Shown here piece by piece: positions 20,928 through 40,191 of a DNA stretch of 64,000 nt (position 1 is its first letter; each line of letters starts with the position of its first letter). The notes below the pieces were generated by a model. That model was not told the origin of the DNA, searched no databases, and saw nothing but the letters and a program-made list of their open reading frames with translations. Both the position numbers and the translations under genes were made by a program. The stretch spans positions 64,001 to 128,000 of the forward strand of contig JBDRKL010000012.1 of assembly GCA_043814055.1 (NCBI GenBank), written 5' to 3'. This stretch comes from an archaeon (GTDB lineage: Archaea; Undinarchaeota; Undinarchaeia; Undinarchaeales; JBDRKL01).

Positions 20928-21035
20928 AAGTTTATATCTGCTTGAGTTAATTTAAATGTATGGCAGTACAAAGCATAACAAATTATACCAGCTTTGTACT
21001 AATTTCAAAGCCTGGGAAATTGGTGAAACTTTGAA

Positions 21036-21299
21036 ATGGCAGAGCACGAGAACCTCAAGCAGAAGATAAAGGACATTATTGAGAATGATATTGAGCACAA
21101 ATGGAGAACTTTCAGCCTTGCAGATGTTGTTGAAGAGGCGAAGATACAGGGAATTAGCGAGCACGAGGTTGAGGAGATTATGCACGAGCTCATTGAGGAC
21201 AATTACATTCACGAGGTCCGCGGGGCGCACGAGCTTTATGAGCGGACTGTTTGGAAAGATTACAACCCGGCGAATGAAGAGGGGCCGGATTTTAGCTGA
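21036..21299 (+). CDS. Small winged-helix protein
   Basis: Pattern resembles the C-terminal WH of MCM and RPA in this window; SD GGTGA. Confidence 0.6.
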   Translation: MAEHENLKQKIKDIIENDIEHKWRTFSLADVVEEAKIQGISEHEVEEIMHELIEDNYIHEVRGAHELYERTVWKDYNPANEEGPDFS

Positions 21300-23099: not shown

Positions 23100-23151
23100 G
23101 ATTGATTTGTTGTTGAGAATGTTTATTAAGTTGGGGGTTTAATAATAAAAT

Positions 23152-23565: not shown

Positions 23566-23568
23566 GAA

Positions 23569-24357: not shown

Positions 24358-24417
24358 AATGGACTTTTGGTTCAAAAGCTATATAAACTTTAAACCGTAT
24401 TTTTCCGAGGTGAGTTA

Positions 24418-24945
24418 ATGGATTTAAAATCAAGTATTCGCAACGTGCCGGATTTCCCGAAGAAGGGAATAATGTTCAGGGACATTACTACGCTTTTGGA
24501 AAACCCTGAAGCGTTCAAGTACTGCATAGACCAGTTCGCTGGGCACTACAAGGGCAAGGGAATTGACATTATTGTCGGGGTTGAGAGCCGCGGGTTCATG
24601 TTCGGCGCAGCACTTGCCTATGCAATGGGAAAGCCGCTTATGATTGTGCGCAAGCCAGGAAAGCTTCCGTGCGACGTGGTTTTTGAGGAGTACGAGCTTG
24701 AGTATGGCACTGACAAGATTGAGATGCACGCGAACTGCATCAAGCCCGGGCAGACCGCGCTTTTGATTGATGACCTGCTCGCCACGGGTGGAACCATACG
24801 CGCCACTGCGAATCTGGTTGAGAAGATTGGAGGGAAGATTGGCGGGATTGCTTTTGTGGTTGAACTCACGTTCCTGAACGGGAAAGATAAACTAAAAAAT
24901 TATGACGTGTTCACGCTTGTTGAATACGATTCAGAGGAGGAGTAA
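24418..24945 (+). CDS. apt: Adenine phosphoribosyltransferase
   Basis: PDFPKKGIMFRDIT, ESRGF, RKPGKLP, IDDLLATGGT. Confidence 0.95.
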   Translation: MDLKSSIRNVPDFPKKGIMFRDITTLLENPEAFKYCIDQFAGHYKGKGIDIIVGVESRGFMFGAALAYAMGKPLMIVRKPGKLPCDVVFEEYELEYGTDKIEMHANCIKPGQTALLIDDLLATGGTIRATANLVEKIGGKIGGIAFVVELTFLNGKDKLKNYDVFTLVEYDSEEE

Positions 24946-26199
24946 ATGAGCAAAATAGCAAACCCAAAACTGGCAGAACAGGGAAGAAAGAAGATTGAAT
25001 GGGCAGAAGCTAGAATGCCTGTAATGATGAAGATTCGCGAGAAATACTCAAAAGAGAAGCCGCTCAAGGGGCAGCGAATCGCAGGATGCCTGCACGTTAC
25101 AAAGGAGACTGCGGTTCTCGTGAAAACTTTGCGTGATGCTGGAGCTGAGATTGCGTGGAGTGGATGCAACCCGCTGAGCACCCAGGATGATATCGCGGCA
25201 GCGCTCGCTGAGGAGGAAAATGTTGAGATTTTCGCGTGGCACGGGCAGAACACTGAGGAGTTTTACTGGAGCATTGAGCAGTGCCTTGAGTTCAAGCCGA
25301 CCTTGACTTTGGACGATGGGGCTGACTTGATATTCACAGTGCACAACAAGCACCCAGAACTTGCTGACGGGATTATTGGCGGAAGCGAGGAAACAACCAC
25401 AGGAGTTCACAGGCTTAGGGCGATGTCTGATGCAGGGAAGCTCTTGTATCCGGTTATTGCAGTGAATGATGCAGAGACCAAATGGGACTTTGATAATGTT
25501 TACGGCACAGGGCAGAGCTCGCTTGACGGAATTTTGAGGGCGACTAATGTTCTGCTTGCTGGAAAGACTTTTGTGGTTGCAGGGTACGGGCACTGCGGCA
25601 AGGGCTGCGGAATGCGCACAAAGGGAATGGGCTGCAATGTTATTGCAACTGAGGTTGACCCAATACAGGCGCTCAAGGCAACTCTTGAGGGAATTAGGGT
25701 GATGAAGATGGATGACGCCGCAAAGGTCGGGGATATTTTCATAACCGCGACCGGAGTCAAGGACATTATTAGGAGGAATCATTTTGAGGTAATGAAGGAC
25801 GGTGCGATTGTGTGCAACACCGGGCACTATGACTGCGAGATAAACATTCCTGAGCTGGACTCGCTGGCCAAGAGCAAGAGGACCATAAGAGACAATTGCG
25901 AGGAATATACAATGAAAGACGGCAGAAGGATTTATCTGCTTGCACAAGGCAGGCTTGTCAATCTTGCGGCAGCTGAGGGGCACCCAAGCGAAGTTATGGA
26001 CATGAGCTTTGCGAACCAGTTCAACGCGATGATGCAGCTGGCAAAGGAAGGAAAAACCATGGGCAAAAAGGTCTATGACACTACCAAGGAGCAGGACCAG
26101 GAAATAGCCGGAGTGAAGCTAAGCACAATGGGCATTGAAATAGACAAGCTCACAAAGGAACAGGAAGCGTATCTCACGGATTACAGCATGGGGACATAG
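24946..26199 (+). CDS. ahcY: S-adenosylhomocysteine hydrolase
   Basis: CLHVTKETA, CNPLSTQD, EETTTG, FDNVYGTGQS, GRLVNL..GHP. Confidence 0.96.
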   Translation: MSKIANPKLAEQGRKKIEWAEARMPVMMKIREKYSKEKPLKGQRIAGCLHVTKETAVLVKTLRDAGAEIAWSGCNPLSTQDDIAAALAEEENVEIFAWHGQNTEEFYWSIEQCLEFKPTLTLDDGADLIFTVHNKHPELADGIIGGSEETTTGVHRLRAMSDAGKLLYPVIAVNDAETKWDFDNVYGTGQSSLDGILRATNVLLAGKTFVVAGYGHCGKGCGMRTKGMGCNVIATEVDPIQALKATLEGIRVMKMDDAAKVGDIFITATGVKDIIRRNHFEVMKDGAIVCNTGHYDCEINIPELDSLAKSKRTIRDNCEEYTMKDGRRIYLLAQGRLVNLAAAEGHPSEVMDMSFANQFNAMMQLAKEGKTMGKKVYDTTKEQDQEIAGVKLSTMGIEIDKLTKEQEAYLTDYSMGT

Positions 26200-26220
26200 A
26201 AAAGGTTCATAGGATGAGAT

Positions 26221-26266
26221 AACCCCTTTATAAAGAGAACCCTTTATATACCCCCTTACTTATATA
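26221..26266 (+). promoter_or_regulatory. Three tandem TATA-like boxes upstream of tbp
   Basis: CCCTTTATAAA, CCCTTTATATA and CTTATATA about 16-17 nt apart. Confidence 0.5.
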
Positions 26267-26318
26267 GTACTTCCCCGCGATGGAGGGGGCTAAATTTTAG
26301 TCATGAGGTGGTAATTGA

Positions 26319-26428
26319 ATGGCACCCAGCCCCTGAAGTTGGGGACTGGGTGTATTTCGAAGCGGCGGAAGTCGCTTCAAAAAAAAGAGGGAGGGAAATG
26401 CGGCATTTAATGCCGCTTCGAAATGGCA
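26319..26428 (+). promoter_or_regulatory. uORF plus double-hairpin leader of tbp, flanked by AATGGCA repeats
   Basis: SD GAGGTG then ATG at 26319 (MAPSP*); 13-bp stem ATTTCGAAGCGGC/GCCGCTTCGAAAT covers the tbp ATG. Confidence 0.6.
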
Positions 26429-27064
26429 AAAAAAACAACAAAAAAAAGTACAACAAAACCTGTTAAAAAACAGGTTATTAAGAAATCTAAGACAACAAAA
26501 CCTGTTAAAAGACAATTTATTAAGAAACCCAAGGTTAAGATTGAGAACGTGGTTGCGTCCGCTTCTGTGGATGCCGAAATAGACTTGGACAAAATTGCTG
26601 CAACGCTTCCGAATGCTGAGTATGAGCCGGAGCAGTTCCCAGGGCTTGTCCTAAGACTTACTGACCCCAAAGCCGCAATACTGGTCTTTTCCTCAGGAAA
26701 GATGGTCTGCACAGGCGCAAAAGAAGTAGCTATGATTAAGGTGGCAATAGACAAGACCATCAAGCAGATAAAGACAACCGGAACCAAGGTTAGGGGGGAG
26801 GCAACCATAACTGTGCAGAATATTGTGGCAAGCTCTGACCTAGGCGTAGAGCTCAACCTGGACAAGATTGCTTTCTCGCTTCAGAACGCTGAGTTTGAGC
26901 CAGAGCAGTTTCCCGGGCTCGTGTTCCGCGTGTTTGACCCTAAAGTGGTGTTCCTGCTGTTCAGGTCTGGGAAGATAGTGTGCACTGGCGCAAAGAAGAA
27001 GATTGATGTTGAGCGCGGAGTCGCAAAGCTGATACAAGAACTCAAAAAGATAAAGGCGCTTTGA
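26423..27064 (+). CDS. tbp: TATA-box binding protein with Lys-rich N-terminal extension
   Basis: Two TBP repeats: IENVVAS..EYEPEQFPGL..FSSGKMVCTG and VQNIVAS..EPEQFPGL..FRSGKIVCTG. Confidence 0.97.
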   Translation: MAKKTTKKSTTKPVKKQVIKKSKTTKPVKRQFIKKPKVKIENVVASASVDAEIDLDKIAATLPNAEYEPEQFPGLVLRLTDPKAAILVFSSGKMVCTGAKEVAMIKVAIDKTIKQIKTTGTKVRGEATITVQNIVASSDLGVELNLDKIAFSLQNAEFEPEQFPGLVFRVFDPKVVFLLFRSGKIVCTGAKKKIDVERGVAKLIQELKKIKAL

Positions 27065-27086
27065 ATCATTTCATAATGGGGAGAAT

Positions 27087-29123
27087 ATGGAGAGAGATCC
27101 AATAGAACGATTTGAGGAATTTTTCCGAGAGAAATACTACGACGACCTACTGAAGGTTGCGCGTGAATACCCTGACAAGAAATCTCTTGTCGTGGACTAC
27201 GCGGAGCTGGACAAGCACGATGTTGAGCTGGCTGATCTGCTTCTCAAGGACCCAGAGGAGACCTTCAAGATTGCCAAGGACGCCCTGATGGAGATTGACC
27301 TCCCTATTGAGGGAATCTACAGTATAAATGTGCGCTTCAAGAACTTGCCGAGCTCCCAGAACATAAATATCCGCGACGTCAGGTCAGAGCACATAGACCA
27401 CCTCATAACGCTTGAAGGGCTTGTGAAGAGTGCGGCGGACGTGAGGCCTGAGGCGATTAGGGTTGTGTATGAATGCCCAGACTGCAAGAAGGAAATTGTT
27501 GTGGCACAGGGCGGGAAGAAGCTCAAGACCCCGTTTATGTGTGATGACCCGCAATGCGCCAGGAAAGGGCGGTTCAAACTGCTCAGGGCAGATTTGATTG
27601 ACACGCAGAGCATAAAGATACAGGAGCCCCCTGAGACGATTATCGGCGGGGAGCAGCCATCACAGCTTTACTCACAGCTCAGTGAGGATTTGGTTTCACC
27701 TTTTGAGAGGAAGAAGTCGCTGCCTGGAAACAGGGTCAAAATAACCGGAATTCTCAGGAAGAGGGCAACGCACACGACTGCCGGCGCGCCCACCACAAGA
27801 TTTGACTTGTATCTTGAAGCAAACCACATTGAGACTATTGAGCGCGAGTTTTCAGAGATAGAGCTGAGCAACAAGGATATTGAGGATATAAAGAAATTGT
27901 CAAAGGACAAGAAGCTTTACAAGAAGTTTGTTGATTCGCTTGCACCTTCCATCCAGGGTTATGAGGATGTGAAGGAGGCCATATTGCTGCAATTGTTCGG
28001 CGGGGTTCCTAAGATTCAGCCGGACGGAACCAGAATTAGGGAAAATATTCACTTGTTCCTTGTTGGTGACCCAGCTGTTGGTAAGTCACAGCTGCTAAGG
28101 TATGTTGCTGAGTTGTCGCCAAAGGGCAGGTTTGTCTCTGGGCGAAAAGCGTCAGGGGTTGGTTTGACAGCAGCGGTTGTGCGCGATGAATTTGCCGGCG
28201 GCTGGACCCTTGAAGCAGGCGCGCTTATCCTTGCAAACAATGGAGTGGCTGCTGTTGACGAGTTTGACAAGATGGATGACGACGACAGGAGCGCTATGCT
28301 GGAAGCCATGGAGCAGGGGACGATTTCCATTGCCAAGGCAGGGATTGTAACAACGCTCAGGGCGAACACAACTGTGCTTGCTGCAGCGAATCCAAAGTAT
28401 GGAAGGTTTGACTTGTACAGGCCGCTACCTGACCAGATTGACTTGTCTCCGGTTATACTGAGCAGGTTTGACGTAAAGTTTCTGATACAGGACACGCCAG
28501 GCAGGGAAGCGGACGAGAAACTCGCTGATCACATTCTTAATTCGTTTATTTCTCCAAAAACTGTTGAGCCCGTGATAAAGGGGGAGTTCATCAGGAAGTA
28601 TGTTGCTTACGCAAAGACACATTGCAAGCCAAAGATGACAAGGGAAGCACAAAAAATCATAAAGGACTTCTATGTGACTTGGAGGGGAAAACACGGCGGC
28701 GGGGACAGCGGGGACAACAAAGTTGCGCTTACTCCGAGGCAACTGGAAGCGCTTGTGCGAATGTCAGAAGCATCTGCCAAGGTGCGGCTTGCTGATAAGG
28801 TTACTGTTGAGGATGCGAGGCGCGGCACAAGGTTGCTTGAGTTCTCGCTGAGGCAGCTTGGCACTGAGCCTGAGACAGGGCAGATTGACATTGACAGGAT
28901 AGAGGCGGGCACTAGTTCAATGCAGAGAAGCAAGATTTACACCATGCTCACAATTATTGAGGAGATTACAAAGGACGTTGGCAAGAATGTTCCGGTTGAG
29001 GATATCCTGAAAGAGGCAAAAGACCGCGGCATAGAGGAGCTCGCGGCGCTTGAGCTTATTGGAAAATTAAAGGAGAAAGGTGATTTGTTTGAGCCAAAAC
29101 CGGGCTACCTCCAAAAAGCGTAA
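27087..29123 (+). CDS. mcm: MCM replicative helicase
   Basis: Zn finger, GDPAVGKSQ, VDEFDKM, AANPKYGRFD, SRFD, C-terminal WH; no intein. Confidence 0.97.
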   Translation: MERDPIERFEEFFREKYYDDLLKVAREYPDKKSLVVDYAELDKHDVELADLLLKDPEETFKIAKDALMEIDLPIEGIYSINVRFKNLPSSQNINIRDVRSEHIDHLITLEGLVKSAADVRPEAIRVVYECPDCKKEIVVAQGGKKLKTPFMCDDPQCARKGRFKLLRADLIDTQSIKIQEPPETIIGGEQPSQLYSQLSEDLVSPFERKKSLPGNRVKITGILRKRATHTTAGAPTTRFDLYLEANHIETIEREFSEIELSNKDIEDIKKLSKDKKLYKKFVDSLAPSIQGYEDVKEAILLQLFGGVPKIQPDGTRIRENIHLFLVGDPAVGKSQLLRYVAELSPKGRFVSGRKASGVGLTAAVVRDEFAGGWTLEAGALILANNGVAAVDEFDKMDDDDRSAMLEAMEQGTISIAKAGIVTTLRANTTVLAAANPKYGRFDLYRPLPDQIDLSPVILSRFDVKFLIQDTPGREADEKLADHILNSFISPKTVEPVIKGEFIRKYVAYAKTHCKPKMTREAQKIIKDFYVTWRGKHGGGDSGDNKVALTPRQLEALVRMSEASAKVRLADKVTVEDARRGTRLLEFSLRQLGTEPETGQIDIDRIEAGTSSMQRSKIYTMLTIIEEITKDVGKNVPVEDILKEAKDRGIEELAALELIGKLKEKGDLFEPKPGYLQKA

Positions 29124-29126
29124 GAT

Positions 29127-29186
29127 AGGGGCTTCGCGAACTAAAGTGAGCGAACGCCCCAGCTCTACCTCCGCGAGCAGGCGGAG
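29127..29186. repeat. Palindromic element homologous to 8283-8332
   Basis: GGGGCTTCGC...GCGAACGCCCC hairpin plus identical 18-mer CTCCGCGAGCAGGCGGAG. Confidence 0.75.
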
Positions 29187-29202
29187 TGATTGGAAATTAG
29201 GA

Positions 29203-30015
29203 ATGTTCTTTTCCGAGCTTTCACTGTTTCTGGGCGCGCAGATTTTGGGAGTTTATGTTGGATTTTCGCTCATAAACATGGGTTACACCTATGTGCAGGA
29301 CACGGGCGCTTCGGTCTCAAGCTTTTTGATTTCCTTCACAATCGCAACATTGGTGCTTGTGTTAATGCTTAAGTTCCTGAAGAGCCACTTGTTCTTCAAG
29401 GGGCTTCTCGCGTTCCTGATATTCGTCGGCGCTGAAACCGTGTTCGCGGTTTTCATCTGGGAAGGCGCAGCGCTTTTGCTTGCCATAGCGCTTGTTGTTT
29501 TAAGATTTAAGCTGCCCAACGTGTTTATGCAAAACTTGGTGATGGTTATAGCCATAGCCGGGATTGGCGCGAACTTGGGGACGCTGTTCTCAGTTCCAGC
29601 TGTTTTGATAATACTCGCTGTTCTTTGCATCTATGACGTTGTTGCAGTGTACAAGACCAAGCACATGGTAAGCTTGTTTAAGGGAATGGTCAGTAAGGGC
29701 GTTCCATTTTCATTAATAGTGCCGGAGAGCATTGGGGATGTTAGGATTAATGTCAAGGATGCCGTGCCGGGAGAGGGGCGGTTTTTAATGCTTGGGACTG
29801 GAGATGTCGCGTTCCCTGTGATATTTGCTGTGGCTGCGCTACAGGTTGGGTTGATGAGTTCAGTGGCAGTTGTGGCAGGAGCTCTTGTCGGGCTTCTCAC
29901 GATTCATTTGCTCCTTGTGAGCAAGAAGACCGGAGCAATTCCAGCTCTTCCGCCGATAACATTTTTCTCAGTAATTTTCTTCCTGATTTCGCTGTATTTT
30001 AATGGAGGGCTCTGA
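29203..30015 (+). CDS. Presenilin/SPP-family intramembrane aspartyl protease
   Basis: YD, LGTGD and PALP motifs; multiple TM segments; start reassigned to 29203. Confidence 0.9.
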   Translation: MFFSELSLFLGAQILGVYVGFSLINMGYTYVQDTGASVSSFLISFTIATLVLVLMLKFLKSHLFFKGLLAFLIFVGAETVFAVFIWEGAALLLAIALVVLRFKLPNVFMQNLVMVIAIAGIGANLGTLFSVPAVLIILAVLCIYDVVAVYKTKHMVSLFKGMVSKGVPFSLIVPESIGDVRINVKDAVPGEGRFLMLGTGDVAFPVIFAVAALQVGLMSSVAVVAGALVGLLTIHLLLVSKKTGAIPALPPITFFSVIFFLISLYFNGGL

Positions 30016-30623
30016 TGGAGCTCGCAACGAAAATTCACATTAAGGATATACTTGACGGAAAATTCACTCCAGGGCAAGGCTACGAGTCTGGCACGCTGAA
30101 GACAACTGACGGGAAGGAAATCAAGAAAATTCATATTCTGGCCACTATTGTTGAAAAGTTCGTTGCGGAAGACAAGGGATTCGCGAGCATCACGCTGGAC
30201 GACGCCACTGAGACAATAAAAGTCAAGGTATTCAAGGAGCACGTGGCGAAGATTGAGCCCCGGAAGGTTGGGGATATTATTGACGTGATGGGTGTGCTAA
30301 GAGAATATGAGGGCGAGGTTTATGTAATGCCGGATTTTATTAAGATTATTGATGACCCTAATTGGGAGATATTGCGAAACTTGGAGCTTGATAAAAGGAC
30401 TTTGCAGAAAGCAAATGAAAACACAGCGCTGGGAGCAGCCAGAGTGGAGATTGACCTTGGGCCGATAATACTTGAGAAAGTTGGAGCAGGTAGAATAGCA
30501 ATTAAAGAATTGATAAATGATTTAAAGGAGCACGAAGAAGAGAATGTTCTTGGCAAGGTGCGAGAGCTGATGATGAAGGGCGATTTGTACGAGCCAAAAC
30601 CAGGAGTGATAAAAGCAGTATGA
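30015..30623 (+). CDS. RPA32-like OB-fold ssDNA-binding protein with C-terminal WH
   Basis: ITLDDATETIKV..GDIIDVMG.LREYEGE, DPNWE, GDLYEPKPG. Confidence 0.85.
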   Translation: MELATKIHIKDILDGKFTPGQGYESGTLKTTDGKEIKKIHILATIVEKFVAEDKGFASITLDDATETIKVKVFKEHVAKIEPRKVGDIIDVMGVLREYEGEVYVMPDFIKIIDDPNWEILRNLELDKRTLQKANENTALGAARVEIDLGPIILEKVGAGRIAIKELINDLKEHEEENVLGKVRELMMKGDLYEPKPGVIKAV

Positions 30624-31021
30624 GCTACGAAGACCTTTTAAAAAGAGCGAGGGAGAATTTGCCGGAACAGACCGCAGAAGATAACCGATTTGAGGCGCCG
30701 ACGTTTCAGAGCTTTAACCAAGGTTCTCAAACCATCATCAAGAACTTCACTGAGGTTGCAGGAACGCTTGAGCGGGATGTTGCCCATTTAATGAAATTCA
30801 TACTAGGAGAGTCAGGAGCTGCTGGCGATTTGGACGGGCACAGGCTGATACTGAAAGGCAGGAAGACCCAGGATTTTCTCAACCAAAAACTTGAGGTTTA
30901 TATTAACAGGTTCTTGATTTGTGACCAGTGCGGAAAGCCGGACACTGAGCTGAGGAAAGAAGAGGGTGTTTTGAGAATTAAGTGCAAAGCGTGTGGGGCG
31001 AAATACACACCTAAAAGATGA
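30620..31021 (+). CDS. eif2b: Translation initiation factor aIF-2 beta
   Basis: YEDLLKRA, RFEAP, TIIKNF, CDQCGKPDT, CKACGA. Confidence 0.93.
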   Translation: MSYEDLLKRARENLPEQTAEDNRFEAPTFQSFNQGSQTIIKNFTEVAGTLERDVAHLMKFILGESGAAGDLDGHRLILKGRKTQDFLNQKLEVYINRFLICDQCGKPDTELRKEEGVLRIKCKACGAKYTPKR

Positions 31022-31320
31022 TTAGCATAAAAGAAACTGAAACCACAGATGGAAAAGTTCTCGCCGCTTGCGACGAGGAATTGCTTGGGAAGAATTTTAA
31101 AGAGACCGGAAGGACTTTAGAGGTTAGAGAAAGTTTCTACGGCGGCAAGATTGTAACGATTGAGGAGTTTTCTGACAAATTACAAGCCTGCACGATTGCT
31201 AATTTGGTTGGGGATATTGTTGTTGGGAAAGCACTGGAGCTCGGACTGGTTGCTGAAAGCTCAGTTATTAGAATTCAAAATGTGCCGCACGCTCAGATAT
31301 TATTCTTTAAAACAGCATAG
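31018..31320 (+). CDS. DUF424 family protein
   Basis: [28 protein letters not shown]. Confidence 0.85.
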
Positions 31321-31555
31321 TTTCCAGGTCAGCGCTGGCTATGTCAATTATTATTGGCTCTTTTCCATCCGCGCGCCTTATCACGGTCATTGGGATTGCG
31401 CGGTCCTTGAACTCCAGGACTGCAACCTCGGTTGGAGAACCCTTGAGCTCATCAGGAACATTCACGAGCACAGGTGCGCCCATTGAAATCTGCAAAGAGC
31501 GGGCTCCAATGATGCGTGCGCGCTCAAAACGTGTAAGTTTGTTTGTAGGATACAT
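31307..31555 (-). CDS. rpoK: RNA polymerase subunit Rpo6 (K)
   Basis: [22 protein letters not shown]. Confidence 0.95.
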
Positions 31556-31595
31556 AAGCGAAATGATATCTATTGAAAGGTATTTAAAGGTTAGT

Positions 31596-31659
31596 ATGAG
31601 ACACACATTGGAGAAAGTTGTTACGTGTGTTCATCAACATCGGAGGCGATGTTGATGGA
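31596..31659 (+). promoter_or_regulatory. uORF/double-hairpin leader module before kinase
   Basis: ATGAGACAC...GTGTT stem 1; 13-bp stem 2 with GAGG loop covering both candidate ATGs; uORF stop overlaps ATG (TGATG). Confidence 0.55.
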
Positions 31660-32278
31660 GCCGAAGAAAGAAGAGCTGGAACAACTCAAAGCCACAGGAC
31701 TTGAGTACGTAGCGAAAGGGTGGCGCTCAAGCGTGTATAAAGCGCAAATGGGCAAGAAGGTTGCTGCGCTAAAGGTTTGCGAGGCTGGGACGGCTGTGAA
31801 GGAGGCCGAGATGCTCAGAGAAGCGAACAAAGTGGGCGTGGGGCCGGAGTTATATGGCAGTGCAGAGCACATTGTTGCGATGGAGTTTATTGACGGGGTT
31901 CGCTATGCGGACTGGGTTGAAACCGCTGAGCCAGTTGATGTTAAAAAAGTTGTTTTGAAAATACTTGAGCAGTGCAGGGCGCTTGACAAAGCCGGGATTG
32001 TGCACGGCCAGCTCTCCACTGCGGAGAAGCATATTATTGTGAGGGGGAATATTCCGTATATTATTGATTTTGAAAAGGGCTCCGCAGAGGGGAATGCGCG
32101 CAATTTTACAGCTGTTTTGAACTTTATTTTGCTTAATCCGAACGGGTATGCGGCAAAGACAACAGTAGAAAAGCTTAATATAGACGCCAACGAAGTAAAG
32201 CGCTATGCCAGGGAATACTCAGAACACGGGGAAGAAGCCTACGCCAAAACCAGGCGGTGGATACAGACCGGGATTTAG
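31655..32278 (+). CDS. RIO/Bud32-like Ser/Thr protein kinase (COG2112-like)
   Basis: AKGWRSSVY, ALK, EAEML, MEFIDG, HGQL, IIDFE; start 31649 or 31655. Confidence 0.8.
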   Translation: MEPKKEELEQLKATGLEYVAKGWRSSVYKAQMGKKVAALKVCEAGTAVKEAEMLREANKVGVGPELYGSAEHIVAMEFIDGVRYADWVETAEPVDVKKVVLKILEQCRALDKAGIVHGQLSTAEKHIIVRGNIPYIIDFEKGSAEGNARNFTAVLNFILLNPNGYAAKTTVEKLNIDANEVKRYAREYSEHGEEAYAKTRRWIQTGI

Positions 32279-32609
32279 GCCAGGATACCGCCCAGGTTTT
32301 AATAGGAACCAGGACGGAGATGGCTTTGTCCGCGTTCGCATGCCCAAGGAGCAATTTAGAGAGGTTTTGGGCACGGTTGAAGAGAACTATGGCAGCAAAC
32401 TATTGATAAAGTGCAAGGATGGGCACGATAGGATTTGCAGAATTCCCGGCAAGATACGCTACAAGCTAAGGCTCAAGATTGGGGACATAGTACTTGTCAA
32501 GAAGTGGACAGTGCAGGAGAATGAGAAAGGCGATTACCTTTATCGGTACACTCCGGCACAAATTGCAAAGCTCAAGACGATGGGCATTTTGAAGGATGAG
32601 GATATGTGA
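32205..32609 (+). CDS. eif1a: Translation initiation factor aIF-1A with Gly/Arg/Pro-rich N-terminal extension
   Basis: RVRMP, CKDGHDRICRIPGK, GDIVLV..W..KGD..YRY; start uncertain. Confidence 0.88.
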   Translation: MPGNTQNTGKKPTPKPGGGYRPGFRPGYRPGFNRNQDGDGFVRVRMPKEQFREVLGTVEENYGSKLLIKCKDGHDRICRIPGKIRYKLRLKIGDIVLVKKWTVQENEKGDYLYRYTPAQIAKLKTMGILKDEDM

Positions 32610-32731
32610 AAGGGCGGAGCGTGGCGATTTTGGTTTTTAGAGCTGTGTGTTTTGAAGACTAAATCAATATGCTGCGACGCAGTTACCTTTATATACCAAG
32701 AGAGATAAATAGCATATAGTCCTTCTGGATA

Positions 32732-33274
32732 GTGGTTAAAGTGGCAGAATACGTTAAAATACCAGCAGAGCGCATTGAGGTTTTGCTGGCAAACAAAGAG
32801 AAGATAAAGAGAGAGATTGAGAAGGGCACGAATACAGAACTTGAGATAGACGAAGAGGCCTGCGACGTAGAAATTATTGAAACCGAGAGAATGGAAGACC
32901 CCTTAGCTGTCTGGAAGGCGCGGGATATTGTAAAGGCAATTGGCCGCGGATTTGAGCCAGAGATTGCGATGATGCTGCTGGACGAGAACAATGTGCTTAA
33001 GGTTATAGACCTGAAAGCGTTTGTTGGAAAAAGTAAGAATGCGGCGATAAGAATAAAGGGCCGCGTGATTGGTCGCGAAGGAAAGTCCAAGAAGAAGATA
33101 AGCGAAATAACCGACACGGAAATGGTCGTATACAGCAAGACAGTGGCGATAATTGGAAAAATGGAGTACGTTGAAATTGCCGCAAGGGCCGTAGACATGC
33201 TTGCGTCAGGCTCAATGCACGGCTCAGCATTCAAGATGGTTGAGGAAGAAATGGCAAAAGCGGTGACAAAGTAA
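32732..33274 (+). CDS. KH-domain ribosome biogenesis protein (Dim2/Pno1)
   Basis: KARDIVKAIGRGF, RIKGRVIGREGK, GSMH. Confidence 0.9.
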   Translation: MVKVAEYVKIPAERIEVLLANKEKIKREIEKGTNTELEIDEEACDVEIIETERMEDPLAVWKARDIVKAIGRGFEPEIAMMLLDENNVLKVIDLKAFVGKSKNAAIRIKGRVIGREGKSKKKISEITDTEMVVYSKTVAIIGKMEYVEIAARAVDMLASGSMHGSAFKMVEEEMAKAVTK

Positions 33275-33275
33275 G

Positions 33276-33352
33276 ATGAGACACAAAGCAAAAAATTTGT
33301 TAAGCAACTTCATTGTGTTCAAAGCAGGTAAAGGGGGTGAAACTTTGAAATG
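33276..33352 (+). repeat. Leader/uORF module copy 1 (before top6B)
   Basis: 31/36 nt identical to 35098-35133; uORF MRHKAKNLLSNFIVFKAGKGGETLKWQEK* (33276-33365). Confidence 0.75.
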
Positions 33353-35101
33353 GCAGGAGAAATAACAGCAGAAGCATTATTCAAGGAATTCCAGAGCGTT
33401 CAATTGAGCGAGTTCTTTAGGAAGAATAGGCAGTTTCTTGGCTATGTTGGAAAAATAAAGTCACTCACTACGGTTATTCACGAGCTTGTTACTAATTCAT
33501 TAGACGCGTGCGAGGAAGCGGGCATACTGCCTGACCTTCGGGTTATTGTTGAAGAGCTTGGAGTTGAGCATTACAAGATTACTTGCCAGGACAACGGACC
33601 AGGAATCCCGGAAACACATCTGGAAAAAGTTTTCGGGCAATTACTCACAGGGACTAAATTTCACAGGAATATTCAACTCAGAGGACAGCAGGGGCTTGGT
33701 GTCAGCGGAGCAGTGCTGTTCTCACAGATCACTACTGGCCAGCCGAGCAGGATAAAATCAGGAACAGGCAAAGGCACAGTTGTTGATGCCATGATTGAGA
33801 TGGATATCAAGACGAACTCGCCAAAGATAATTTCAAAAAATGTTGAGCACGATTCCTGGAGGGGAACGCGCGTGGAAAGCGAATTCAAGGGGGTCCAATA
33901 CTCAAAGGGCTCTAAAGGGCCGTTTGAATATGTCAGGTGGACCGCTGCCTCAAATCCACACGCGAAAATTTACTTCAAGGACCCTGCGGGCAGTGAGATT
34001 GTGTTTGAGAGGGTTATTGACAAGATTCCGCAGACACCAAAGGAGATAAAGCCGCACCCGGAGGGGCTTGAGGCGCACGACCTGCTTGACCTAGCGCACA
34101 AGTCAACGGCAAGGCAGGTTTCAACGTTCCTGACCACAGAGCTCGCTCGAGTGAGCTCGCAGAAGGTCACGGAGATGGAAGACATAATCAACAAGGACAT
34201 GATTAGGGATTACTTGGTAGCTGCTGGAATTTCAAAGGAATCTGCTGAGACGCAAGCTGCTAGCATAACCCCTAAAGAGTGGACTGAGAAGCACGCGGAT
34301 AAGCCGCTCTTTGACACCCGCAGAAGCCCGAAGAGGATTGAGTGGAAAGACGCTGAACATCTCGTGAATGCTTTCAAGAAAACCAAGTTTATGGCGCCGC
34401 CGAGTTCTGGATTAATTCCAATTGGGCAGAAAACTGTTGAGAAGGCGCTAACAAATCTGCTCGCGCCTGACTTTGTTGAGGCAATCACACGAAACCCCAC
34501 AGTTTACAAAGGCGGAATTCCGTTCATGGTTGAGGCTGCGATTGCATACGGCGGAAACTCAGGGAGAGAAGGAGCAGAAGGCGGGAGAAAAGTTGAATTG
34601 ATGAGATTCGCAAACCGCGCTCCACTATTGTTTGACGCAGGCGGCTGCGCTTTAAACAAGTCAATGGAGTCAATTGACTGGAAGAGATACCACATAATGG
34701 ATATGGACCACGCGCCGGTGACTGTTTTCATAAATCTCGTATCAACGCACGTACCTTACACATCCGCAGGGAAGCAGGCGATTGCAGAGGAGGACGAGGT
34801 TGTGGCAGAGGTGCGGTTCGCGCTGATGCAGATAGCAAGAACACTTCAAAAGTTCTTGTCCGGAAAGAGGCGGGCTTCAGAGAGGAACGCGAAGAAAAAG
34901 CTGTTTGAAAAATATATCCCAGAGACCGCGAAGGCGATATCAAAGCTCAGCGGCGCAAAAGAAGAGGACCTGCGCAAGAATCTTGAGAAAATCGTTCTTG
35001 ACCGGTTTGGAAAGGAATTCGCCGGCGGCGAGCCAGAGGAAGAAGAGACCGCTGCGTATGAGGAGATTCCTGAAGAGATTGAAGAGGAGGCGGAAGAATG
35101 A
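33350..35101 (+). CDS. top6B: DNA topoisomerase VI subunit B
   Basis: EFFRKN, HELVTNSLDACE, DNGPGI, RGQQGLG, RFANRAPL, VPYTSAGK. Confidence 0.96.
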   Translation: MAGEITAEALFKEFQSVQLSEFFRKNRQFLGYVGKIKSLTTVIHELVTNSLDACEEAGILPDLRVIVEELGVEHYKITCQDNGPGIPETHLEKVFGQLLTGTKFHRNIQLRGQQGLGVSGAVLFSQITTGQPSRIKSGTGKGTVVDAMIEMDIKTNSPKIISKNVEHDSWRGTRVESEFKGVQYSKGSKGPFEYVRWTAASNPHAKIYFKDPAGSEIVFERVIDKIPQTPKEIKPHPEGLEAHDLLDLAHKSTARQVSTFLTTELARVSSQKVTEMEDIINKDMIRDYLVAAGISKESAETQAASITPKEWTEKHADKPLFDTRRSPKRIEWKDAEHLVNAFKKTKFMAPPSSGLIPIGQKTVEKALTNLLAPDFVEAITRNPTVYKGGIPFMVEAAIAYGGNSGREGAEGGRKVELMRFANRAPLLFDAGGCALNKSMESIDWKRYHIMDMDHAPVTVFINLVSTHVPYTSAGKQAIAEEDEVVAEVRFALMQIARTLQKFLSGKRRASERNAKKKLFEKYIPETAKAISKLSGAKEEDLRKNLEKIVLDRFGKEFAGGEPEEEETAAYEEIPEEIEEEAEE

Positions 35102-35176
35102 GACGCAAAGTAAGAAATTTGAAAAGCAACTTCGCGTTTATTTCAAACCTGATGCAGGCGGGGAGGGTTTGAAATG
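35098..35176 (+). repeat. Leader/uORF module copy 2 (before top6A)
   Basis: Homologous to 33276; uORF MRRKVRNLKSNFAFISNLMQAGRV* (35098-35172). Confidence 0.75.
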
Positions 35177-36289
35177 AGCGACGATGCAAAAAATAAGAGG
35201 AAGCTTGAAAAAGAGGAAGAATCCACTGAGAGAATAGGCGATTTTGGAAAGAATATTTCTGACACGATTCTTGCCGGGAAGTCCCCGGATTTCTCCATGC
35301 CAATAAGGTCAAAGAACAACGTCACATATGACGCTGGACATGGCTACCTTGAGCTTGGGGACAAGATGGCAAAGCGTTATTTCCTGAACGTGGCTCACAC
35401 CAGAAAATTCATGCAGTCAATGCTCGTTGCCTCGGCGTGCAAGACGTATATTGAAAACGACAGGACAGTAGGAAAACGTGAGTTGTACTACAACCTGAAG
35501 CACTCACTGCCAAATTCAAGGGAGAACACTTTTGAGGATGACATTGAGTCCGGCACTGTGCTTGATGATTTGGAGGCATCGCTTGACACCCTGCGTGAGA
35601 ACCTGCACATTGAAGCAAAAGCGCGCGGGTCAATTTATGGAGACATAACGCTGAGCCAGGCAGGGGACACTTTTGACTGCAGCAGGCTTGGCAGGGGCGG
35701 ATGGGCTATTCCTGGATACACCGAGGACGTTGAGGTAGTCAACCACAAGGCGGATTTCATATTAGCAATAGAGAACGATGCCATGATGTCCCGACTCATT
35801 CAGGAAAAGATTTACAAAAAGTTGAACTGCATCCTGATGACAGGAGAAGGCATGTTCCCGCGGGGCGTGAGGCGGTTCGTGAAGATACTGAGCGAGCGGC
35901 TCAAGCTGCCGGTCATAACTTTCGTTGACGGCGACCCGTACGGGTTTTACATATACTCTGTGCTGAAGTATGGGTCAATCCAGCTTGCGCACTTGTCAAG
36001 GAGGTACGCGATACCGGATGCAAAGTATGTTGGAATGACAATGGATGATATTGACACTTACGAGCTGGGGAATGTTACGGAAAGGCTCAAGGAGATTGAC
36101 AAGAAGAGAATCAGGGAGGAAATGGAGTACCCGTGGTTCAAGGGCAATGAGGTCTGGATGAGGCAGTTAAAAATGATGCTGGAGAAGGGTGTGCGTATTG
36201 AACAGCAAGCGCTTGCGAATAAATCACTGGACTTTGTCGCGAAGAAGTATCTGCCTGAGAAAATTGAGGCGGAGAAGTTCTTGTTTTAG
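35174..36289 (+). CDS. top6A: DNA topoisomerase VI subunit A (Spo11 family)
   Basis: RELYY, IEND, DGDPYG, EQQAL. Confidence 0.96.
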   Translation: MSDDAKNKRKLEKEEESTERIGDFGKNISDTILAGKSPDFSMPIRSKNNVTYDAGHGYLELGDKMAKRYFLNVAHTRKFMQSMLVASACKTYIENDRTVGKRELYYNLKHSLPNSRENTFEDDIESGTVLDDLEASLDTLRENLHIEAKARGSIYGDITLSQAGDTFDCSRLGRGGWAIPGYTEDVEVVNHKADFILAIENDAMMSRLIQEKIYKKLNCILMTGEGMFPRGVRRFVKILSERLKLPVITFVDGDPYGFYIYSVLKYGSIQLAHLSRRYAIPDAKYVGMTMDDIDTYELGNVTERLKEIDKKRIREEMEYPWFKGNEVWMRQLKMMLEKGVRIEQQALANKSLDFVAKKYLPEKIEAEKFLF

Positions 36290-36368
36290 TAGGCAGATAT
36301 CAGTTTGTAGTTCGTAGTAACTACCAACCACTAACTTTAAAAAGAGCTAAGAATATAAGAGTTGTACA

Positions 36369-36539
36369 ATGGGAAAGAAAGAAAAGGTCAGCCTGCCGCC
36401 AATGGGCGGGGGATTGTTCAGGCCAACAGAAGGCGAAGGAACAGGACTAAAGCTCAAGCCAGAGCACGTAATTGGAGCTGTTATTTTTGTGATTGTTTTT
36501 GAGGTTTTTCTTCACTTTTACGGGAACTCGCTGTTTTAA
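36369..36539 (+). CDS. secG: Preprotein translocase subunit Sec61beta (absent from ORF track)
   Basis: My translation: MGKKEKVSLPPMGGGLFRPTEGEGTGLKLKPEHVIGAVIFVIVFEVFLHFYGNSLF; LP.xGGGL.R...KxxPE + TM pattern. Confidence 0.88.
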   Translation: MGKKEKVSLPPMGGGLFRPTEGEGTGLKLKPEHVIGAVIFVIVFEVFLHFYGNSLF

Positions 36540-37566
36540 CTCCAGGAATTGAAAGTATTGGGGAATCACGTTCAGTAAAAGATGAGCCGTAGGTTTGCGT
36601 CCGTTCTATGCCGGGAATTTTGATAATCTCTTTGATGATTTGCTTCATGATTTCACGCTCGCTTGAGCCGTGAGCCTTCGCAACTATGTTGAACTTTCCG
36701 GAGAGGATATGTGCCTGAGTGATATTTGGTATGGCTGCAAGAGCCTTCAGGATGTCGTCAAGCTTTATGTTCTTGTCTATTAGTTTGTCAGCTGAGATTG
36801 TTGAGACGAAGATGAAAGCGGTTGCAGGAAGGCCTATTTTTCCAGGGACTATTTTTGCGTGGTAGCCAATGATAACCTCGTTTGTTTCAAGGCGGCGCCT
36901 GCGGTGGTGCACAGTGGTTGGAGGGATGTTAAGTTTTGAGCCAAGCTCACGGGAAGAGAGCATGCAATTCTGCTGAAGCTCAGCGAGGATTTTGCGGTCA
37001 GTGTTGTCAAGCTTGACCTCGCCTTCCTTGAGCACTGGGATTTCCTTTTTCACTGACTCGTGGATAGAAAGCTCGTGGCTGTCCAGGGCAGAGAGTCCGA
37101 TGAAAAGCGTCTCGGTTCGGTTGATTCCAGGAACAGCTCGGATTTGGTCAATAAAGAGACGACCGATCTCCCAATCAGTGGCGCCTGTTGCCCTAACGAG
37201 TATGTCCAAATCCCCTGTGAGAATGTCAACGCTTGAGACGTTGTTAAGCTTTCCAATCTCGTGAGTGATGTCATATACGCTCAGCTTTTCCTGCATCATC
37301 AGGTGTAGGGAGAGAATTTCAATAAGAATTAGGACTGATGTATTAAGGCCGACTGCGTTTGGATTTAATTTTGCGTGGTATCCTGATATCACGCCGGTTG
37401 CCTCAAGTCGCTTGCGCCTGTGATGTGCAGTGGTTGAGGGGATTCCAACTTTTGAGCCAAGCTCACGGGAGGAGAGCATGCAATTCTGCTGAAGCTCAGC
37501 AAGAATCAAGCGGTCAGTGTTGTCAAGCTTGACCGGAGCTATGGGATTTGGGAGAGTTTCTTTCAT
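36481..37566 (-). CDS. Tandem (double) Lrp/AsnC transcriptional regulator
   Basis: Two LDNTDRxILAELQQN HTH + RAM domain units. Confidence 0.9.
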   Translation of the reverse strand: MKETLPNPIAPVKLDNTDRLILAELQQNCMLSSRELGSKVGIPSTTAHHRRKRLEATGVISGYHAKLNPNAVGLNTSVLILIEILSLHLMMQEKLSVYDITHEIGKLNNVSSVDILTGDLDILVRATGATDWEIGRLFIDQIRAVPGINRTETLFIGLSALDSHELSIHESVKKEIPVLKEGEVKLDNTDRKILAELQQNCMLSSRELGSKLNIPPTTVHHRRRRLETNEVIIGYHAKIVPGKIGLPATAFIFVSTISADKLIDKNIKLDDILKALAAIPNITQAHILSGKFNIVAKAHGSSEREIMKQIIKEIIKIPGIERTQTYGSSFTERDSPILSIPGVKTASSRKSEEKPQKQSQK

Positions 37567-37838
37567 TTTGATATTGGCACATACAGTACAAAGTGTTATT
37601 TTTGTACATTATACCATAAATGAGTAGCTGTTTATATGTTTTTCTAATAATTTGCAATGTAAATCGCCTAAATAGGAACATACGTACAAGATAGCGAAGG
37701 AACGTATAAACAAGAAAATGGGTATTGATTGGATAATGTACAAGATTTAGTTAGTATTCGTTAGAATATCATAAAATATACAATATTTTTTAAGAAACTT
37801 ATATATAAGGAATAGTGTATAAGAAAGGCGTGGTGGAA

Positions 37839-37919
37839 ATGAAACTATATGGAGAGAGAGGCGCAATAGAAAGTTTGAGAGCCAATTTGTATGGCAGAAA
37901 GGTGGTGGAGAAATGGTAG
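37839..37919 (+). CDS. Candidate 26-aa uORF/small protein
   Basis: TATA near 37800, SD GGTGG, MKLYGERGAIESLRANLYGRKVVEKW*, overlaps next start. Confidence 0.35.
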   Translation: MKLYGERGAIESLRANLYGRKVVEKW

Positions 37920-38140
37920 TGGCTTTCATACTGGCCAATACAAAAACAGGGAAAGAGAGCGATGTAATAAACAGCCTGAAGGTTATGCCAGAGATTAAGG
38001 AGGCGCACAGCGTGTATGGAGACTATGACATTTACATACGGGCGGAGACTGAGAATCTTGAGCACCTGAATGACTTCCTGCTCAAGAAAATACGCGGCGT
38101 TACAGGCATATCTTGCACGACCACGATGATTGGCCTTTAG
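37913..38140 (+). CDS. Stand-alone Lrp/AsnC ligand-binding (RAM) domain protein
   Basis: AFILANT..GKE, EAHSVYGDYDI, KIRGVTGISCTTTMI. Confidence 0.88.
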   Translation: MVVAFILANTKTGKESDVINSLKVMPEIKEAHSVYGDYDIYIRAETENLEHLNDFLLKKIRGVTGISCTTTMIGL

Positions 38141-38232
38141 GCTCTGGGGTCTGCTAGTTCTGAATAGACGTGAGTATTGATTATAGAAAGTGTTAAAAGG
38201 GTTCGCGGAGAGAATAGTCTAGTTATAACATA

Positions 38233-38351
38233 GGGGGTGTGGTCTAGTTTGGTATGATACTTGCTTTGGGAGCAAGTGGTCCCCAGTTCAAAGGCGTGCG
38301 AAGCGTGACTTAACATGCGCTTGTGCGTGGAAAATCTGGGCACCCCCACCA
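38233..38351 (+). tRNA. tRNA-Pro(TGG) with 42-nt T-loop (59/60) intron at about 38293-38334
   Basis: GGGGGTG/CACCCCC acceptor, CTTGC-TTTGGGA-GCAAG anticodon arm, CCCAG-TTCAAA[intron]T-CTGGG, encoded CCA. Confidence 0.92.
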
Positions 38352-38457
38352 CTCCGCCTAGCCGCGGAGAAAGGCTGTCCCGCATCACACAACACACACT
38401 CGTGTGTGTGCATAAATCACCGCAATGCGGTGATTCATGTTTGTGATGCTGCGGGAC
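38352..38457. repeat. Multi-hairpin palindromic element downstream of tRNA-Pro
   Basis: CTCCGC/GCGGAG, GTCCCGCA/TGCGGGAC, ACACACAC/GTGTGTGT, AATCACCGC/GCGGTGATT stems. Confidence 0.7.
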
Positions 38458-38474
38458 TACTGGACAAGTACATC

Positions 38475-39035
38475 TTAAACAAGATTTCTGATTTCATCCT
38501 GCACTAAATCAACCTCGCGCGAGGCGTCAATTATTTTGAAACCGCTTTCCTCCGCGAGTTTCAGGTAGTTCCCCCGGACTTTTGTAAGAAACTCAGTGTT
38601 CTCAAATTTTTCCTCAGTTGTGGTTCTGCCTGCTCCGACTTCGGGCGGGACGTCAAGCAGGATTACAATGTCAGGCTTAGGGGCGAATGAATTCAATGAT
38701 TTCAACCATTCCATATCTAGGCCCTGCGCGGCTTGGTAAGCGATTGTTGAATAGGTATAGCGCTCGCAGATTACGGTTTTGCCCTGCTCAAGAGCTGGCT
38801 TTATTTCCTGCTCAACATGCTCAGCTCGGTCTGCGATGAAGAGCATTGTGTCAACGAGCGGCGGAGCATCCTGCCTGAGATACTCGCGGAGAAGTTTTCC
38901 AATTTGGCCGTGGCTCGGCTCGGCGGTGTGCAGGACTTCTTTGCCATGCTCTTTCAGAAATTCAGTAAGAAGCTCTGCGTGGGTTGACTTGCCGCAGCCG
39001 TCTATGCCTTCAAAAACTATGAGCTTACCCGGCAT
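38475..39035 (-). CDS. tmk: Thymidylate kinase
   Basis: FEGIDGCGKST, ADRAEH, ERYTYSTIAYQ. Confidence 0.95.
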   Translation of the reverse strand: MPGKLIVFEGIDGCGKSTHAELLTEFLKEHGKEVLHTAEPSHGQIGKLLREYLRQDAPPLVDTMLFIADRAEHVEQEIKPALEQGKTVICERYTYSTIAYQAAQGLDMEWLKSLNSFAPKPDIVILLDVPPEVGAGRTTTEEKFENTEFLTKVRGNYLKLAEESGFKIIDASREVDLVQDEIRNLV

Positions 39036-40191
39036 TTTTCTCCACTACCTCGCCTGGCTTTGTGGTTGCTCCGGATTTTATTTTTCTGCCAGGGTATATT
39101 ATTGAGCAGATTCCTGTTTTCACGTTGTCGCCAATTACTGCGCCGAATTTTCTCAGGCCTGTGTCAACCATTTCACCGTTCACTTCCATCTTTATGTTCG
39201 CGTTATCGTGGCGCAGGTTTCCGATTATTGTTCCTGCTGCGATGTTGCAGTTTTCCCCTATGATTGAATCTCCAACGTAATTCTGGTGTGGCAGGCAGGT
39301 ATTGTTAAATATGACTGAATTTTTTATCTCAACACTCTGGCCTATTTTGCAATTGTTGCCGATTGTTGAATACGGGCGGATGTAGCAGTTCGGGCCGATT
39401 CTGCAGTTAGTCCCAATAAGCACTGGGCCTTCTATGTAAGCTCCTGCGCGGATTATCGTGCCTTTGCCCGCGATTATCTTGCCCTTTAGTGTTGCGCCCT
39501 GCTCAACCTCAGCCTCATTCTTCCCTTCAATTTCATTTAGAAGCGACTGGTTTGCCTCAAGAATCTGCCACGGGTAGCCGACCGGCTGCCAGAAGATTGC
39601 GTCAACGTATTTCAAGCTGCCAAGTTGAAGCGCAGCCTGCGGGAGTTCGTAATCGCCGCGCTCGGATTTCTCAAGTTTCAGTTCAAAGAATTTTTTTGGG
39701 AGGATGAAAGCGCCGGTGTTTACAAAGCCATCTGCTCCTGATTTTTCAGAGAATGAAATTACCTTGTCATCATCCAGCTCTGCAACCCCGAATGCGGACG
39801 CATCTTTCACTTTTGCAAGAGCAACAGCGGGCGCGCCTTTTTCAATTAAGTTTTGTATTGTCCCGGCGTCTATTATGTCGTCTCCGTTTAGCACGAGGAA
39901 ATCTTTCTTGATAAAATCTTTTGCAGCTGCAACTGCGTTCGCGGTTCCGAGCGGCTCTTTCTGCACTGCGTATTCAAGCTTGACCCCAGCGGTTTCGGTT
40001 CCAAGTGCGCCCTTGAGTGTTCCGTCCGGCTTCTGGACTATGACTGCCTCGCTGATGCCTGCTGTTTTCAGGGCTTCAAGTATGTGCACTATGATTGGCT
40101 TGATTGCAATAGGGATGAGCGACTTGAGCCGCGTCTCGGTCAGCGGGAGCATTCTGGCCCCGTCTCCTGCGGCAAGGATTACAGCTTTCAT
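39025..40191 (-). CDS. glmU: Bifunctional sugar-1-phosphate nucleotidylyltransferase/acetyltransferase (archaeal GlmU)
   Basis: ILAAGDGARMLPLT, LGTANA, LNGD, hexapeptide repeats, NLRHD. Confidence 0.85.
   Translation of the reverse strand: MKAVILAAGDGARMLPLTETRLKSLIPIAIKPIIVHILEALKTAGISEAVIVQKPDGTLKGALGTETAGVKLEYAVQKEPLGTANAVAAAKDFIKKDFLVLNGDDIIDAGTIQNLIEKGAPAVALAKVKDASAFGVAELDDDKVISFSEKSGADGFVNTGAFILPKKFFELKLEKSERGDYELPQAALQLGSLKYVDAIFWQPVGYPWQILEANQSLLNEIEGKNEAEVEQGATLKGKIIAGKGTIIRAGAYIEGPVLIGTNCRIGPNCYIRPYSTIGNNCKIGQSVEIKNSVIFNNTCLPHQNYVGDSIIGENCNIAAGTIIGNLRHDNANIKMEVNGEMVDTGLRKFGAVIGDNVKTGICSIIYPGRKIKSGATTKPGEVVEKNAG

Follow-up and report, generated by a model that had tools for sequence, protein, structure and literature searches.

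Why do three separate spacers of one archaeal genome begin with the same ATGAGAC, each opening a short reading frame that runs up to, or slightly past, the start codon of the next gene? The question arises in a 64,000-nt stretch of an undinarchaeal metagenome-assembled genome (MAG), hereafter the window (C12:64001-128000 of the source assembly, labelled G000, which comprises 979,685 bp in 14 contigs and is 82% complete), where the spacers precede the genes of a RIO-domain kinase and of subunits B and A of topoisomerase VI (Top6B, Top6A). TBP, Top6, aIF-1A and EF-2 identify the genome as archaeal. A sequence-only reading had taken them for a translation system gated by upstream open reading frames (uORFs) and placed on DNA-transaction genes. 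According to our analysis, which gives this answer roughly two chances in three, the spacers are copies of a lineage-specific repeat, similar to the MIRUs (interspersed repetitive units of mycobacteria), that is inserted at start codons, bringing a termination-reinitiation cassette with it.

The common beginning of the three spacers is real, and they are members of a dispersed repeat of 60-80 nt. The motif ATGAGACRC occurs exactly three times in the window (31596, 33276 and 35098), for a mean of 0.9 in shuffled windows, three being reached in 7 of 100 shuffles. The spacers can be mutually aligned, the closest pair being those at 33276 and 35098. A nhmmer hidden Markov model (HMM) made from 11 copies gave 34 hits in the genome at E<1e-3, corresponding to 30 loci. 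A covariance model (CM) made from 26 aligned copies and applied at E<=0.01 gave 38 matches, which reduce to 34 type-A loci after removal of one double hit and of three reverse-strand echoes stemming from the palindromic stem 2. The kind found at 31596 (type B) is present in three full copies and one partial copy. Taken together, about 40 genes are preceded by the repeat, approximately 34 by type A, 3-4 by type B and 2 by leaders of the kind found before tbp. This genome scan had been suggested by the sequence-only reading, which had missed a fourth copy in the window; beyond these four, it uncovered about 35 more. Tandem, truncated and hybrid copies occur, two tandem dimers being seen. No match was found on any copy in an Rfam scan of positions 20000-40000 of the window at E<=1.

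The hairpins of the repeat covary. Over two helices (21 pairs) in the 26-copy alignment, 86.7% of the cells were paired, against 26-47% in controls with slid partners; both sides had changed at 11 of the 21 pairs, and the covariation score was matched by none of 500 shuffles. The two-hairpin layout is kept with the arms ATTTCGAAG/CTTCGAAAT at C4:23510-23593, with swapped arms at C9:271-334, and in type B, whose arms differ (CATCAACATC/GATGTTGATG against ATCAAAATC/GATTTTGAT). A CAAAGC/GCTTYG core is common to both stems of the repeat. An additional hairpin, the third, whose stem measures about 16 bp, lies between stems 1 and 2 at C10:26378-26516, C11:6813-6956 and C10:112043-112167. Over more than 120 nt, the two long copies of this form, one on C10 and one on C11, hardly differ, despite different downstream genes. 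Within the window, a stem 1 followed by a stem 2 enclosing the Shine-Dalgarno sequence (SD) had been described for each of the three spacers. This description holds for two of them: in the folds of 31596 (-23.6 kcal/mol, z -4.0) and of 35098 (-22.3 kcal/mol, z -2.6), both stems form and the downstream ATG lies inside the 3' arm of stem 2, no shuffle out of 200 being as good; GGAGG stands at the top of stem 2 in the former. At 33276, only stem 1 appears in the minimum free energy (MFE) structure.

The position of the repeat is also strict. In 28 of the 30 loci, it terminates precisely on a genuine gene's ATG (ORFs of 47-729 aa), always co-oriented with the gene, which bears out the positional enrichment at start codons that the sequence-only reading implied, and a same-strand ORF of at least 60 aa ends no more than 60 nt upstream at 22 of the 25 scored loci. 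Pfam hits were obtained for 24 of the 28 downstream products. The targets comprise a 2-hydroxyacid dehydrogenase, two Mnh/Mrp-type subunits, SBDS, RNA polymerase subunit P (RpoP), S28e, NDK, dCMP deaminase, a DegT aminotransferase, a GDP-mannose dehydratase, a SIS protein, L18Ae, FKBP, a thiamine pyrophosphate (TPP) enzyme, EF-2, Spt4, both transketolase halves, an ABC ATPase, a ferredoxin, PyrI, RIO, Top6B and Top6A. These are mixed housekeeping families and not a set devoted to DNA transactions, and this part of the earlier proposal is not supported. At the scale of the genome, 55 stems of at least 9 bp close on start codons, compared with 19 and 25 at two control offsets, and when stems of 8 bp or more are counted, 14 out of 88 are family copies; because the ORF-based start call is crude, no general design rule is drawn from these counts.

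Signals that could serve translation are present at both ends of the repeat. The 3' end of the 16S rRNA reads ...GATCACCTCC, and at least 5 nt complementary to this tail are present in the stem-2 loop of 20 of the 26 aligned copies (8 nt in 5 copies), mostly 7-10 nt before the ATG. A 5' ATG is found in 25 of 28 loci; its overlap with the stop of the upstream gene takes the form ATGA in 8 loci and TAATG in 2, and an SD-like motif precedes it in other loci. The mini-ORF that it opens continues in 22 of the 25 loci to a stop at -4 (TGAAATG, 12 loci), +1 (ATGA, 8 loci) or -2 (TGATG, 2 loci) of the gene ATG, the others being two that overshoot by 4 or 13 nt and one, in a tandem pair, that stops early. 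The distance between the two ATGs falls into ten classes (59, 62, 65, 67, 74, 76, 77, 130, 137 and 144 nt), nine of which place the mini-ORF out of frame with the gene, the sole in-frame class (144 nt) being the early-stop locus. In the 130-nt form, longer by 54 nt and endowed with the third hairpin, the mini-ORF is still open over 42 codons. The tandem dimer of 137 nt has ATC, not ATG, where its two units meet, and one 46-codon ORF extends across both. The three uORFs of 19-29 codons reported in the window were found as described. The first (31596-31655) has 19 codons and a stop at -2, its TGA overlapping the RIO ATG at 31655. The second (33276-33365) begins 1 nt past the TAA of the KH-domain gene and has 29 codons and a stop at +13, i.e., 13 nt beyond the Top6B ATG (33350). 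The third (35098-35172) has 24 codons and a TGA at -4; its ATG shares bases with the Top6B stop (ATGA), and the new Top6A ATG is at 35174.

Comparison with genomes of the same order, whose Top6A proteins are 72-78% identical to that of the source genome, shows the module to be an insertion at four junctions. The Top6B and Top6A genes overlap (TAATG) or lie no more than about 14 nt apart in 9 of 10 relatives, and are separated by a 76-nt module in the source genome. Likewise, tktN and tktC overlap in 7 of 9 relatives (5 by ATGA, 1 by TAATG, 1 over a longer stretch), where the source genome reads ATGA-module-ATGA. The distance from the stop of an S7-like ORF to the EF-2 ATG is 7-10 nt in 9 of 11 relatives, and the stop lies 88 nt upstream of the ATG in the source genome; the KH and Top6B genes are at most 11 nt apart or overlapping in 9 of 12 relatives, and 78 nt apart here. 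At the EF-2 junction, the source genome is orthologous through ATGGCAC, then comes the module, and then ATGGCAC again, leading into the gene. Such flanking duplications are seen elsewhere: the copy at 20960-21038 begins with ATGGCAG, the same 7 nt with which the 87-aa ORF downstream of it opens (start 21036), and a 13-nt direct repeat flanks the copy that precedes L19e on a metagenome contig (L123). When the 4 nt behind one ATG are compared with those behind the other over 21 loci, 36 of 84 positions are identical (permuted mean 27.0; 67 of 20000 permutations reach 36). The contig L123 is unusable as an empty-site control because the source assembly is without the L19e/L18/S5 genes, and the RIO junction is uninformative because the three relatives with the gene have another upstream neighbour. 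A divergent full copy is present in a same-order relative (G003) at an aminoacyl-tRNA synthetase (aaRS) junction, where the source genome has only the SD and 3'-arm part.

The family is nearly confined to one genome. The CM gave 0-1 weak matches in each of 12 other genomes of the order and no match in 28 more distant genomes. A stem-2 pattern matched 24 times in the source genome, with a single match in the 12 others of the order; it matched 45 scattered bacterial stretches and no archaeon among public species-representative genomes, nothing among viral contigs, and L123 alone among metagenome contigs.

From these elements, the following course of events can be proposed. Insertion would duplicate the ATG together with 1-10 following bases and add hairpin 1, then hairpin 2 with its loop SD, a new ATG being placed at the foot of hairpin 2. 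The old ATG would still be fed by the upstream ATGA or TAATG stop-start overlap, or by the old SD of the gene, and would now open a bridging ORF of 19-46 codons through both hairpins, ending at -4, on, or -2 of the new ATG. Ribosomes coming from the upstream gene or from the old SD/ATG would translate this ORF and melt both stems; their termination next to the new ATG, which the loop SD precedes by 7-10 nt, would be followed by reinitiation. In this way, expression of the gene could survive the insertion and stay coupled. Coupling in Haloferax is described as lost when the spacing exceeds about 30-40 nt (PMC12548453, from its accessible part), and a 76-nt insert would therefore break coupling unless bridged by such an ORF. 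That translation of the mini-ORF opens stem 2 and passes ribosomes to the gene is plausible on sequence grounds, and the logic fits coupling because of the stops at -4, +1 or -2, the loop SD, and the frame kept in both the third-hairpin variant and the dimer. Translation of the uORFs, reinitiation and the mode of spread are inferred steps of this scheme, whereas the repeat family, its hairpin covariation, its placement at start codons, its insertion as judged from relatives, the flanking duplications, the continuous ORF and the SD complementarity are observed.

Several observations weigh against it. At 33276, the AU-rich stem 2 is absent from the MFE structure, whose energy (-9.9 kcal/mol, z +0.99) was equalled by 171 of 200 shuffles. 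The 5' ATG is absent in 3 of the 28 loci, and two mini-ORFs overshoot the start. Copy 31596 has a TATA-like box 8-15 nt ahead of its 5' ATG; by archaeal promoter geometry, the transcript could start in stem 1 and leave the uORF ATG outside the mRNA. Such boxes were seen by eye upstream of two type-B copies, not inside them. Filled and empty sites were compared only at the level of the order. The flanking repeats are variable (4, 7 or 13 nt), and the 5' heptamer of type-1 copies is constant whatever gene follows, which together argue against a single cut-and-paste enzyme; a fixed 7-nt target duplication was considered and fits type-2 copies, not type-1. No match to Y1_Tnp, DDE_Tnp_1 or rve was obtained in the genome, a MAG that is 82% complete, and TnpB reached 16.5 bits, below the cut-off. 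Repeats are often left unassembled. Finally, the non-Watson-Crick cells of the alignment comprise 31 of G.U type and 48 of A.C type, with no bias to the sense strand; as A.C-type cells are not fewer than G.U-type ones, the stems may be maintained at the DNA level and not in the sense RNA, to which these cells give no preference over the opposite strand or over DNA.

This last result would fit a palindromic repeat acting at the DNA level, of the repetitive extragenic palindrome/bacterial interspersed mosaic element (REP/BIME) kind or derived from IS200/IS605, in which the hairpins serve mobility or DNA transactions, and the open mini-ORF and its stop positions are passively inherited from a few master copies with no translational role. 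Adjacent hairpins with similar cores and the tandem, truncated and hybrid copies would suit such an element, and covariation is possible in a mobile family without any host function. Against it stand the common orientation of every copy and its downstream gene, with 28 of 30 ending exactly on the gene's ATG, the complement of the 16S tail in the loop at normal spacing, the avoidance of frame 0 in nine of ten length classes, a stop interrupting it in the tenth, and the open frame of both the third-hairpin variant and the dimer, whose internal ATG reads ATC; no Y1 transposase was found in the genome either. We consider this explanation quite improbable. An IS200/IS605-derived or REP-RAYT element does not agree by its features either, the hairpins alone being shared, with no Y1_Tnp match in the genome, TnpB below the cut-off and flanking duplications present. 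The same applies to a MITE (miniature inverted-repeat transposable element), for which the terminal inverted repeats (CAAAG/CTTTG) and the flanks of 4, 7 and 13 nt are not those expected, a fixed-length duplication being lacking. The peptides could also be what is conserved, as a family of small basic proteins of 19-29 residues, given that the ORFs are open and their N-termini alike (MRHK, MRRK, MAQQS, MTQQS). Yet the 3' half is read in two frames across copies (..SFVFISKL..KL vs ..RVYFKAG..LK), which places the conservation at the level of nucleotides and structure and not of the peptide, and makes this option very improbable. For the same reason, a leader-peptide attenuator relying on a stalling peptide was discarded.

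A host regulon is a better candidate, albeit an unlikely one. It supposes that the module is kept for gating translation, its insertion origin being secondary, and that the AUG locked by stem 2 is released by uORF translation, by temperature or by a hairpin-binding protein. Such a role would account for the layout kept with differing arms (type B, C9:271-334, the ATTTCGAAG/CTTCGAAAT variant and the tbp leader), for the core present in both stems and for the central expression genes among the targets (EF-2, TBP, Spt4, RpoP, S28e and L18Ae), but the target genes have no common theme, orthologous junctions in relatives are without the module, the family is nearly limited to one genome, no candidate factor was identified and the wobble pairs lack a sense-strand bias. 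A shared cassette of insertion origin, as foreseen by the sequence-only reading, is retained, and a dedicated regulatory system, as opposed to tolerated insertions, is not. A related and slightly more doubtful idea is that the repeat has since been domesticated as a genome-wide translational gate, the stem-2-locked AUG being reached only via the bridging ORF. If so, about 3% of the genes (including EF-2, TBP, Top6A/B, Spt4, RpoP and ribosomal proteins) could be tuned together by one signal, either a hairpin-binding factor or the general translation load, and the gate would be a natural, self-spreading archaeal counterpart of synthetic bicistronic design.

The preferred reading, a start-codon repeat with its own termination-reinitiation cassette, finds its closest analogue in the MIRUs. 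In the accessible parts of two reviews (PMC12548453, PMC3184786; after Supply et al. 1997), MIRUs are 40-100 bp long, present in tens of copies between the genes of operons, and contain a co-oriented ORF that shares bases with the stop of the gene before it and with the start of the gene after it (-4 nt, ATGA); they are described there as inserting at start codons with little disturbance of expression, and tetranucleotide direct repeats and filled and empty sites are reported in PMC3184786. The archaeal repeat is similarly short, occurs in tens of copies in a co-oriented intercistronic position, has an internal ORF that starts on the upstream stop and ends on, or next to, the downstream start, and shows filled versus empty sites (four junctions) and short flanking direct repeats. 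It differs by its two defined hairpins, with the SD in the second loop and the new ATG in its stem, by flanking repeats of variable length (4-13 nt), and by two tandem dimers in place of variable-number tandem repeat arrays. As the host is an archaeon, the likeness would be one of analogy, no sequence homology being expected across domains. Dispersed repeats lying directly upstream of genes are also known as REP2 in Neisseria and IR in Borrelia; like the archaeal repeat, they consist of two stem-loops, a site for ribosome binding plus an ATG at the 3' end. They also carry a promoter, the archaeal copies being mostly inside operons, and no bridging ORF is described for them in the accessible part of the same source (PMC3184786).

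With regard to mechanism, the repeat resembles translational coupling and bicistronic design, in which a short ORF in the leader stops at -4 or -1 relative to the downstream start and includes the SD of the downstream gene, and the ribosome clears inhibitory structure at the start (PMC12548453, in its accessible part, citing Huber et al. 2019 and 2023 and Sun et al. 2021). The archaeal mini-ORF likewise stops near the start and contains the SD; unlike the synthetic design, the cassette, with its putative coupling, is natural and apparently self-spreading. With MITEs, REP/BIMEs and IS200/IS605-derived elements, it has in common a small size, the absence of coding capacity, multiple copies, richness in hairpins and a lineage-specific expansion. 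It departs from them by terminal inverted repeats of only about 5-6 nt (CAAAG/CTTTG), the absence of a target duplication of fixed length and its strict orientation and positioning at start codons, and no partner transposase was found in the 82% complete genome.

No archaeal counterpart of MIRU-type repeats was found in a literature search (supplements not covered), and the present family would be one if our reading holds. It would illustrate that a selfish repeat which brings its own stop-SD-start relay is able to go unnoticed even where a gene is most sensitive, at its start. It would also supply about 30 natural variants of a compact coupling cassette, of use in testing archaeal termination-reinitiation or as parts. 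As for annotation, start codons, short ORFs and intergenic distances will be misread in such genomes unless the repeat is recognised.

Table 1. Repeat copies, tbp leader and associated genes in the window (positions are those of the window).
Feature	Position	Strand	Remarks
Type-A copy (fourth in window)	20960..21038	+	mini-ORF of 24 codons, stop at -4
tbp leader	26353..26425	+	14-bp stem, arms ATTTCGAAGCGGC and GCCGCTTCGAAAT, encloses SD, closes on TBP ATG (26423)
Type-B copy	31596..31657	+	stem 1, 31600-31606 with 31625-31631; stem 2, 31632-31642 with 31647-31657
RIO-domain kinase gene	31655..32278	+	downstream of type-B copy 31596
KH-domain (KRR1/PNO1-like) gene	32732..33274	+	upstream of copy 33276
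Type-A copy, hybrid or degraded	33276..33352	+	stem 1 present, stem 2 weak
Topoisomerase VI subunit B gene (Top6B)	33350..35101	+	
Type-A copy	35098..35176	+	stem 1, 35102-35111 with 35129-35138; stem 2, 35139-35150 with 35165-35176
Topoisomerase VI subunit A gene (Top6A)	35174..36289	+	

Two further spacers, at 3489 and 37839, had been listed as looser cases. They are not members of the family, being matched by neither the HMM nor the CM: the former has other hairpins (z -2.8) and the latter is unstructured (z -0.8). The intergenic region 3488-3612 folds into several nested hairpins (-38.1 kcal/mol, z -2.8) unrelated to the repeat family.

Outside the window, at the aaRS/acidic-protein junction of the source genome (C3:23130-23150), only an end consisting of the SD plus TTTGAAATG is seen, either a truncated remnant or a similar native context. 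Another genome of the order, G005, has its own, different dispersed repeat, with the 13-mer AAATAAATTAAGG present 38 times (reversed control, 0); two copies of it stand at the S7/EF-2 and KH/Top6B junctions (L159, ~1390-1500; L170, ~1360-1500), the same sites as those of the module in the source genome. In G009, a spacer of 60 nt occupies the Top6B/Top6A junction (L061) and has a bridging ORF of its own, 17 codons long, with a TGA that shares bases with the Top6A ATG; the start region of Top6A is seemingly duplicated there, and no similarity to the module was observed. At the tktN/tktC junctions of G009 and G001 (L068, L069), a spacer of about 100 nt contains a Cys-rich, zinc-ribbon-like mini-ORF of about 30 codons, which starts in an ATGA overlap with tktN. 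Several contigs of each of two rumen Lachnospiraceae MAGs match the stem-2 pattern (L078, L087, L088, L090, L098, L103 and others) and may carry an unrelated hairpin repeat.

The tbp leader had been credited with the same layout. This is correct for stem 2, and the leader folds at -30.3 kcal/mol (z -4.5), but it was picked up by neither nhmmer nor the CM; it is a distant (type-C) relative of the repeat. One homologue of it exists in the source genome, at C6 ~70720-70786, before a 77-aa ORF. The tbp start is overlapped by a 22-codon ORF that begins with MRH at 26398.

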